Positions 30,684-31,135 are shown, counted from the stretch's first letter. The stretch is 64,000 nucleotides of DNA from a virus (IMGVR_UViG_2687453424_000001); one strand, 5' to 3'. The notes: generated by a model from the sequence alone, not told the origin. Numbers and translations are program-made.

Positions 30684-30914
30684 CCTGTATCCGGTAACCG
30701 TTTACTACCCGCTGTGATGGCGGGTTTTTTATTGCCCGTACAGGGCAAAAACCGTAAATTATGCGTGGGTGCCTTTCGGCTGATGGCTGGAGGGTGAACC
30801 TGAAGGCCTGATGTGGAAAGGCCCCGAGTCAACTTAACGTTAACCCGAGGCCCTAACCATCATACCTTAAGCAAGTAGAAGGTTAGCGCCTCTCTGTAAA
30901 AGGAGTCAAGCGCT

Positions 30915-31055
30915 ATGTCGCAAAAATCGCTTATCACCGTCACAATTTGCATGACGGTTATCTTCACCATCTGGATGTTGCACGGTTCACTGTGTGAGTT
31001 CCGGCTGAATTTGTGGGGAGCGGAGTTTGCGGCGTTCTTACAGTGTAAGCAGTAG
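30915..31055 (+). CDS. hok: Hok/Gef-family type I toxin (small membrane peptide, 46 aa)
   Basis: MSQKSLITVTICMTVIFTIWMLHGSLCEFRLNLWGAEFAAFLQCKQ shows the Hok-family pattern (TMD then SLCE-R ... E-AAF); AAGGAG RBS; found by reading (below ORF-track cutoff). Confidence 0.65.
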   Translation: MSQKSLITVTICMTVIFTIWMLHGSLCEFRLNLWGAEFAAFLQCKQ

Positions 31056-31135
31056 GAAAACCGCGACGGGGACGAAAGTCCCCGTCAACTGGTTGCTGAG
31101 GTTCAGCCGATATGGCACCCGTTTCAGGTGAGAGA

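Follow-up and report, generated by a model that had tools for sequence, protein, structure and literature searches.

We examined a locus in a 64,000-nucleotide stretch of viral DNA (IMGVR_UViG_2687453424_000001; this whole stretch is hereafter called the window) at which a short open reading frame (ORF) and an antisense RNA lie downstream of the gene lom. The features that define the locus, in window coordinates, are these:

30732-30760, plus strand: putative hok promoter, with -35 TTGCCC at 30732-30737, a 17-nucleotide (nt) spacer and -10 TAAATT at 30755-30760, recognised by its conservation
30767-31120, plus strand: minimal extent of the hok-type mRNA (at least about 355 nt), its +1 placed at the first G of GGGUGCC, 7 nt after the -10 box
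30915-31055, plus strand: hok-family toxin ORF, with an ATG start and 46 codons plus stop
30909..30880, minus strand: promoter of a Sok-like RNA, with -35 TTGACT at 30909..30904, an 18-nt spacer and -10 TAACCT at 30885..30880
30872..30817, minus strand: predicted Sok-like antitoxin RNA of about 56 nt, its ends transferred from annotated sokW through the coordinates of the Rfam model RF01794

The locus is a genuine hok/sok-family cassette. It is uncharacterised, although its toxin ORF has already been annotated and its antisense RNA already published, and it very probably forms a self-contained type I toxin-antitoxin unit of about 390 bp (30732-31120) with its own promoter. A first-pass annotation had proposed a Hok-family ORF with an overlapping antisense RNA and fold-back mRNA ends at this site. 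That core reading is borne out by a Pfam match, a full-length Rfam match, conserved pairing between the 5' and 3' ends, a covarying 3' hairpin, an antisense promoter whose position is homologous to that of the sokW promoter, and minus-strand small-RNA reads. The extent then given, 30780-31110, captures the core of a functional unit that is somewhat wider, as conservation starts with the -35 box at 30732 and stops after GGCACCC (31114-31120). Of interest here is the link between the antitoxin RNA and 24B_1, a small RNA published from the Shiga toxin 2 (Stx2) phage phi24B, which had gone unrecognised, together with the absence of the leader frame mok; the main value of the finding lies in the reinterpretation of 24B_1.

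The translation of the ORF, MSQKSLITVTICMTVIFTIWMLHGSLCEFRLNLWGAEFAAFLQCKQ, is identical to the peptide quoted in the first-pass annotation, where it was described as having a single transmembrane domain and a Hok/Gef signature. Both descriptions hold. The peptide scored 33.2 bits against Pfam PF01848 (HOK_GEF; gathering score 22, E 4e-8), with residues 8-44 aligned to profile positions 6-42 of 42, so the Hok-family profile search suggested at that stage passed its threshold. It also matched PHROG 251 (E 2.8e-24) and contains one hydrophobic segment, residues 6-24, with a mean Kyte-Doolittle value of 1.88. A survey of 1264 Hok peptides found M1, C16, T18, L30-C31-E32 and E41 conserved in more than 80%, and the counterparts of these residues here are M1, C12, T14, L26-C27-E28 and E37. 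Judged by its sequence, the peptide is a member of the Hok family of membrane toxins, and by homology it would be toxic. Names for the ORF vary: it is a "Hok/Gef family protein" in RefSeq E. coli genomes and "MokW-like host killing" in a phage record of 2025, and it is left without annotation in the records of phi24B and 933W. HokA, the name used in some sources, was rejected; the HokA equivalog NF007290 is the closest NCBIfam model, but its score of 38.4 is far under the cut-off of 89. At least 1000 public contigs encode exactly this 46-residue peptide.

Over the 451 bases that surround the ORF, identity is 100% to phi24B (HM208303 45559-46009) and 99.1% to 933W, VT2-Sakai/Sp5 and numerous further Stx phages. 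Matches to the cassette were found in 1750 of 5426 complete E. coli genomes, mostly at 80-84% identity, and the homology covers 30747-31120 and stops there. The genomic contexts differ: the cassette follows lom in Stx phages, follows ogr at the end of a P2-like prophage beside serS, follows gpJ, or lies in an O157 island near urease genes, and from one context to another there is no conservation upstream of 30732. For comparison we assembled 82 distinct variants from an exact-pattern scan of viral contigs, from loci in E. coli genomes and from one-genome-per-species contigs; the scan used an exact 22-nt pattern anchored in the C-terminal codons, so that conservation of that end is built in. 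In the one-genome-per-species contigs this pattern occurred at three loci only, two of them probably contamination: enterobacterial hok cassettes in assemblies labelled Firmicutes, namely a Planococcaceae metagenome-assembled genome contig (L010) and a Vagococcus sp. contig (L012). The ORF has exactly 46 codons in 81 of the 82 variants, which encode 22 peptide variants, and the median pairwise ratio of nonsynonymous to synonymous substitution rates (dN/dS) is 0.25; the locus is therefore not a product of chance. Purifying selection of this kind also gives indirect support to the predicted toxicity of the peptide. The defence-system models of PADLOC gave no match.

At the hok promoter, nearly all variants preserve the two hexamers and the length of the spacer between them, whereas the spacer sequence and everything upstream diverge. 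Downstream of it, RF01794 (sok) matches the plus strand at 30767-30928 over model positions 1-157 (38.4 bits, E 1.3e-6). The covariance-model search that had been suggested as a check thus returned a full-length match, but with a score below the gathering score of 59. As a control, the annotated hokW locus gave 113.5 bits, and it did so on the hokW strand, not the sokW strand. RF01794 therefore describes the hok mRNA leader, and on this basis the 5' end of the mRNA is placed at 30767. On L004:703-877, as at 30767-30928 in the window, this "sok antitoxin" model aligns to the sense strand, from the 5' end of the hok mRNA to the hok start codon, so strand calls made from RF01794 need care.

Consensus folding with RNAalifold was carried out on 31 variants, pairwise less than 97% identical, under two scoring schemes. 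The partner of the 5' end differed between the schemes, being 31114-20 with one and 30816-25 with the other. The elements of the proposed fold, with percentages given as cells paired in the comparison of the variants, are as follows:

30767-30773 (GGGUGCC), with the extension CGGCUG at 30777-30782, plus strand: tac-like 5' element, pairing with 31114-31120 (94.8%) or with 30816-30825 (97.8%)
30816-30825, plus strand: internal partner of the 5' element in an "active-form" pairing; 30767-77:30816-25 is 97.8% paired versus 24-85% for slid controls
31104-31109 (CAGCCG) and 31114-31120 (GGCACCC), plus strand: fbi-like 3' element, engaged in the 5'-3' pairing; cassette homology ends here
30820-30852, plus strand: central leader hairpin, complementary to the terminator hairpin of the Sok-like RNA and kept in 31 of 31 variants despite replaced upper-stem sequence
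30853-30872, plus strand: segment to which the Sok-like RNA would bind with its single-stranded 5' tail; no other part of the cassette varies as much
30866-30878 with 31089-31101, plus strand: long-range helix present in both RNAalifold runs, with three compensatory pairs, for example AU in 14 variants versus GC in 13
30884-30915, plus strand: hairpin holding the Shine-Dalgarno sequence AAGGAG (30900-30905) and the start codon; 30884-89:30910-15 is 100% and 30890-93:30903-06 92% paired, with one-sided changes only
31065-31086, plus strand: GC-rich 3' hairpin with a GAAA loop; its 9-bp stem (31065-31073:31078-31086) is 100% paired, with compensatory changes in five of nine pairs

Over the whole proposed structure 92.7% of cells were paired, compared to 35-50% for slid partners, and 15 pairs showed compensatory changes, compared to 3-7. 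Covariation was seen in the helices 30777-82:31104-09, 30866-78:31089-101 and 31065-73:31078-86. The core pairs between the tac-like and fbi-like elements hardly vary, so support for this pairing comes from conservation and from the exact end of homology rather than from covariation. The alternative between tac/fbi and tac/internal pairing, a defining feature of hok mRNAs (PMC9841398), is kept in the cassette family. The 3' hairpin includes the flank hairpin ggggacgaaagtcccc that the first-pass annotation had pointed out at about 31,071-31,086; the structure is real, being fully paired and covarying, and it lies at 31068-31083, about 3 nt from the position first quoted. By analogy with R1 hok, the hairpin at 31065-31086 is likely to act as a stop for 3' exonucleolytic trimming.

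In the predicted fold of the full-length mRNA, the long-range helix sequesters the target of the Sok tail. Removal of the last 34 nt in silico raised the predicted accessibility of 30856-30873 from 0.26 to 0.50, and the effect was seen in 30 of 31 related variants. Mean pairwise identity in the target segment 30853-30872 is 64%, versus 78% in the ORF and 85% in the 5' leader, and this hypervariable tail and target may insulate co-resident copies of the cassette from cross-talk. Tandem cassettes were also observed: in one viral contig (L032:4318-4670/5040-5394) the two hok ORFs are 100% identical and the 30853-30872 segments 65% identical, and in another (L110:5545-5896/6000-6355) the value for the segment is 52%.

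On the opposite strand, the antisense -10 box TAACCT is nearly invariant across the cassette family and, by RF01794 model positions, aligns to a TAACCT located 7 nt upstream of the annotated 5' end of sokW. In the window the Sok-like RNA is predicted to fold into an 11-15-nt single-stranded 5' tail, a 16-bp hairpin and CUUU. An equivalent fold, with a 5' tail, a GC-clamped hairpin of 10-16 bp and CUUU, was obtained for 31 of 31 variants, many with a replaced upper-stem sequence. Each variant was folded separately for this comparison; the RNAalifold consensus on the antisense alignment was weak because of loop indels. The overlapping antisense RNA anticipated at the outset is thus supported by a promoter homologous in position to that of sokW, by a conserved fold and by minus-strand reads.

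Those reads were published by Nejman-Falenczyk et al. (PMC4426718), who sequenced small RNAs from an induced phi24B lysogen and obtained 2223 reads of TAACGTTAAGTTGACTCGGG at HM208303 45711-45692, "between lom and vb_24B_43". Two published RNAs map onto the window:

30842..30823, minus strand: the 20-nt RNA 24B_1 (UAACGUUAAGUUGACUCGGG), from coordinates and sequence in PMC4426718 and PMC10732415
30872..30792, minus strand: the 81-nt 24B_1 precursor, mapped from the in vitro transcription template sequences of the 2023 study (PMC10732415)

The precursor folds at -41.9 kcal/mol (z -7.2) and binds Hfq with a dissociation constant of 25 nM (PMC10732415). The promoter predicted for it in PMC4426718, p24B_1, with boxes TTGACT and CGCTAACCT, is the antisense promoter TTGACT/TAACCT described here. 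Since 24B_1, its precursor and its promoter all coincide in coordinates with the antisense RNA, the RNA published as the 24B_1 precursor is the antisense RNA of the cassette and 24B_1 is a fragment of it, corresponding to the loop and 3' strand of the predicted Sok-like hairpin. Staggered cutting of the intramolecular hairpin by RNase III was rejected as the source of 24B_1, since the ends of the 20-mer do not fit it. We found no link between 24B_1 and hok, sok or an antitoxin in the searchable literature. The words hok, sok and toxin-antitoxin are absent from PMC4426718 and PMC10732415, a 2017 review by the 24B_1 group places Sok and 24B_1 in separate classes, and a 2025 review, which still presents 24B_1 as a trans-acting microRNA-like RNA, mentions none of these terms. 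A Hok survey of 2025-26 does not mention Stx, lom or 24B.

The coordinates, strand and promoter of 24B_1 are those of the antisense RNA here, but it has been described as a processed, trans-acting, microRNA-like regulator (PMC4426718, PMC10732415). According to the published interpretation, the minus-strand transcript exists for the sake of 24B_1, a 20-nt microRNA-like RNA that acts in trans on the d_ant and sdhB mRNAs, favours lysogeny and lowers ATP, and the neighbouring ORF is irrelevant. We consider this improbable as the explanation of the locus, although a microRNA-like role could coexist with that of an antitoxin. It is based on the 2223 identical reads, on phenotypes of a 189-nt deletion that were complemented in trans, on weak pairing with sdhB mRNA in vitro and on lower ATP with a plasmid (PMC4426718, PMC10732415). 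However, the 20-mer is exact in only 7 of the 82 variants while the hairpin is kept in all those folded, the cassette also resides beside a P2-type ogr, after gpJ and in an O-island, and within the window a complement to 17 or more of the 20 bases of 24B_1 is found in the hok leader and nowhere else.

The published experiments also read differently when their primers are placed on the window. The 189-nt deletion corresponds to 30716-30903. Lost with it are half of the lom terminator, the promoter and entire leader of hok, and the antisense RNA together with its -10 box; the hok ORF stays. The complementing and over-producing plasmid is described as carrying the 189-nt region (PMC10732415), but its primers lie at 30604 and 31168 and, going by them, the insert is the whole cassette including hok. 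Reverse-transcription PCR of the "80-nt transcript" used random-hexamer cDNA, so its signal was not strand-specific and could equally represent hok mRNA, and the ends of the 24B_1 transcript were assumed from promoter prediction and a C-rich tract and not mapped. The plasmid with the 24B_1 region lowers ATP, an effect that leaky production of a membrane-depolarising Hok peptide would be expected to have as well. These points do not disprove a trans role for 24B_1. With them in view, however, the existing data do not separate such a role from that of a toxin-antitoxin module.

The mechanism that we propose for the cassette is as follows. A constitutive promoter would give rise to an mRNA of about 355 nt or longer that encodes a 46-residue inner-membrane toxin. 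In the full-length mRNA, 30767-73 and 30777-82 would be paired with 31104-20, the second helix, 30866-78:31089-101, would hide the antitoxin-binding site, and the ribosome-binding site (RBS) and start codon would lie in a local hairpin; with these three elements in place the full-length mRNA would be inert. By homology, slow 3' trimming, probably halted at the hairpin 31065-86, would remove both 3' partners, upon which the 5' end would switch to 30816-25 and the antitoxin target would be exposed. The short, unstable antisense RNA (about 30872 to 30817, minus strand), transcribed from TTGACT/TAACCT, would then pair with the exposed leader and prevent toxin synthesis, probably because RNase III cleaves the duplex, because ribosomes are kept from loading upstream of the toxin gene, or for both reasons. 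Upon loss of the antisense RNA, for example during prophage induction or after loss of the element, the peptide would be made and the membrane depolarised.

The canonical mechanism is that of plasmid R1 (PMC9841398): Sok keeps mok from being translated, and Hok can be made only if ribosomes translate mok as far as the hok RBS. The cassette lacks such a frame: in the window, each of the three frames closes within 30866-30885, and no leader ORF with an ATG, GTG or TTG start overlaps hok. Nor is one conserved: 50 of 81 variants have no overlapping leader ORF. A conserved upstream ATG at 30811 opens an ORF of eight codons here and of 1 to 78 codons across the family. We also discarded the idea of a conserved leader peptide encoded by the 21-codon ORF 30813-30878, which is in frame with hok: from variant to variant, indels in the hairpin loop alter its frame. 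A distance of 27 nt or more separates the antisense RNA from the hok RBS downstream of it. With no mok and an antisense RNA that far from the RBS, repression is probably exerted by cleavage and decay of the duplex, by a block to ribosome loading upstream, or by both. A comparable arrangement is found in the type I system tisB/istR-1, whose antitoxin occludes a ribosome standby site, binding well upstream of the toxin RBS, and which has no coupling leader ORF; its toxin family and RNA are unrelated to those of the cassette. By analogy, a standby-type mechanism could operate here, with the antitoxin at least 27 nt upstream of the RBS.

Several observations weigh against our interpretation. The mok frame, whose translation R1 requires for Hok synthesis, is missing. 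The predicted accessibility of the RBS barely moves on 3' truncation (0.44 to 0.46). The RF01794 score lies under its gathering threshold, the NCBIfam Hok models are below their cut-offs (the Hok subfamily NF007279, at 22.7 versus 73, as well as the HokA equivalog), and both the hok promoter, with 8 of 12 matches, and the antisense promoter fall under the threshold of a consensus scan. A terminator scan found no hok mRNA terminator inside the cassette. Finally, the published phenotype of the 24B_1 deletion, faster induction and more phage, is opposite to that of a hokW-sokW deletion.

Some of these points would also fit a decaying relic resembling several chromosomal hok loci of E. coli K-12, in which transcription of the antisense RNA persists while the toxin is no longer made, mok having been lost. 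The absence of the mok frame that R1 needs and the sub-threshold scores with curated Rfam and NCBIfam models point in this direction, as does the normal growth of MG1655 carrying the cassette on pUC18. A relic, however, would not be expected to keep together an ORF intact in 81 of 82 variants under a dN/dS of 0.25, four helices with compensatory changes, conserved promoters, a 5' end that can pair in either of two conserved ways, and a spread through many genomic contexts and a third of complete E. coli genomes. We therefore regard decay as most unlikely and continue to favour an intact hok/sok-family cassette.

The first-pass annotation had mentioned a hokW-sokW pair described for Stx2 phages and suggested that the locus may be known on that account. 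It is known only in the sense that annotation pipelines label the ORF as a Hok/Gef family protein; hokW-sokW is a different locus. Takada et al. (2021; PMC8621323) characterised hokW-sokW in Sp5, and their primers encode a 51-residue HokW that begins MKQQKAM. Identity between HokW and the present peptide is 37% over 35 residues, and in 933W hokW lies at 58.4-58.7 kb on the opposite strand, whereas the cassette lies at 45.4-45.9 kb; the identification was rejected on these grounds. The 933W annotation at 58.4-58.7 kb, 13 kb from the present cassette, comprises sokW, mokW and hokW. No hokW primer sequence, HokW or HokW-like ORF was found elsewhere in the window. Thus 933W and Sp5 have two hok-family loci each, and the window has this cassette only. 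The two systems are alike in belonging to the same family, in occurring in the same phages, in having the antisense -10 TAACCT at the same model position and in the link of both RNAs to Hfq, on which SokW activity partly depends (PMC8621323). Furthermore, hokW-sokW provides a precedent for Hok production upon prophage induction. They differ in the annotated mokW of hokW-sokW and in its much higher RF01794 score.

The cassette resembles hok/sok (parB) of plasmid R1 in its small Hok-family membrane peptide, its structured mRNA of about 350-400 nt, a 5' end with a 3' or an internal partner, a hairpin just past the stop codon, a buried RBS, and a short, tailed antisense RNA with a terminal hairpin and a promoter within the leader. 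Unlike R1, it has no mok frame, its peptide has 46 residues instead of 52, and the conserved unit has no terminator after the fbi-like element. It also has an extra covarying long-range helix that masks the antitoxin target, and it is carried on prophages and not on a plasmid.

Directly upstream of the cassette lies the terminator of lom, found by terminator scan:

30707-30731, plus strand: intrinsic terminator of lom, with a stem at 30707-30725 and a T-run

The gene that follows, vb_24B_43 (L0129; 31112-31513, plus strand), is annotated from the ATG at 31112, and the PHROG 610 profile (124 positions) aligns to its residues 9-133. Its true start is probably the ATG at 31136, which has aggtga just upstream, and with that start the fbi-like segment 31114-31120 would lie outside any coding region. 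Within this ORF there is a strong terminator-like hairpin at 31215-31245 that scores on both strands (GACGCCTGC...GCAGGCGT then TTTTGTTTT); the hok mRNA has no closer candidate terminator, but this one lies outside the conserved cassette. Elsewhere in the window (3315-3512, 6705-6953 and 7846-8105), Rfam matches above threshold comprise the C4 antisense RNA with its targets and isrK, three tRNAs, STnc100 and AsxR, an anti-stx2 small RNA, all known small-RNA content of the Stx2 phage late region. An 83-residue ORF at about 32723-32974 (plus strand), in the downstream block of virion genes, carries the RefSeq name "bacteriocin" (WP_000540391.1; transferred from L002:4534-4785), an odd name for its position. 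Window positions 1-131 gave no megablast match to HM208303 1-15000 (L133), where the offset derived from the cassette predicts an overlap; the window is therefore not a simple collinear slice of the phi24B record.

If the reading of 24B_1 as an antitoxin fragment is true, an RNA put forward as the first functional RNA of microRNA size from a prokaryotic virus would be reinterpreted. A decade of work on 24B_1 has used a deletion and a plasmid that, by their primers, change or include the toxin gene and its mRNA as well, and recognition of the cassette offers a simpler and directly testable hypothesis for the drop in ATP and the developmental phenotypes. It is quite possible, though we stop short of calling it probable, that all of the following hold together: that an unrecognised cassette encodes a Sok-type antitoxin RNA and 24B_1 is a stable piece of it; that its reported phenotypes (lysogeny bias, induction timing and lower ATP) stem partly or wholly from a disturbed or over-dosed module; and that the cassette represents a widespread mok-less branch of hok/sok in which the antitoxin acts without a leader ORF and a hypervariable tail and target possibly insulate its copies. 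Since mok is missing in most members, the family provides a natural system for the study of Hok translation and Sok repression without the coupling ORF thought essential in R1. Stx2 phages of the 933W/Sp5 type carry two separate hok/sok modules and the phi24B-type sequence studied here carries one. From its position among the late genes, the module may have effects on the timing of lysis, on retention of the prophage or on the physiology of the host in Shiga-toxin-producing E. coli.

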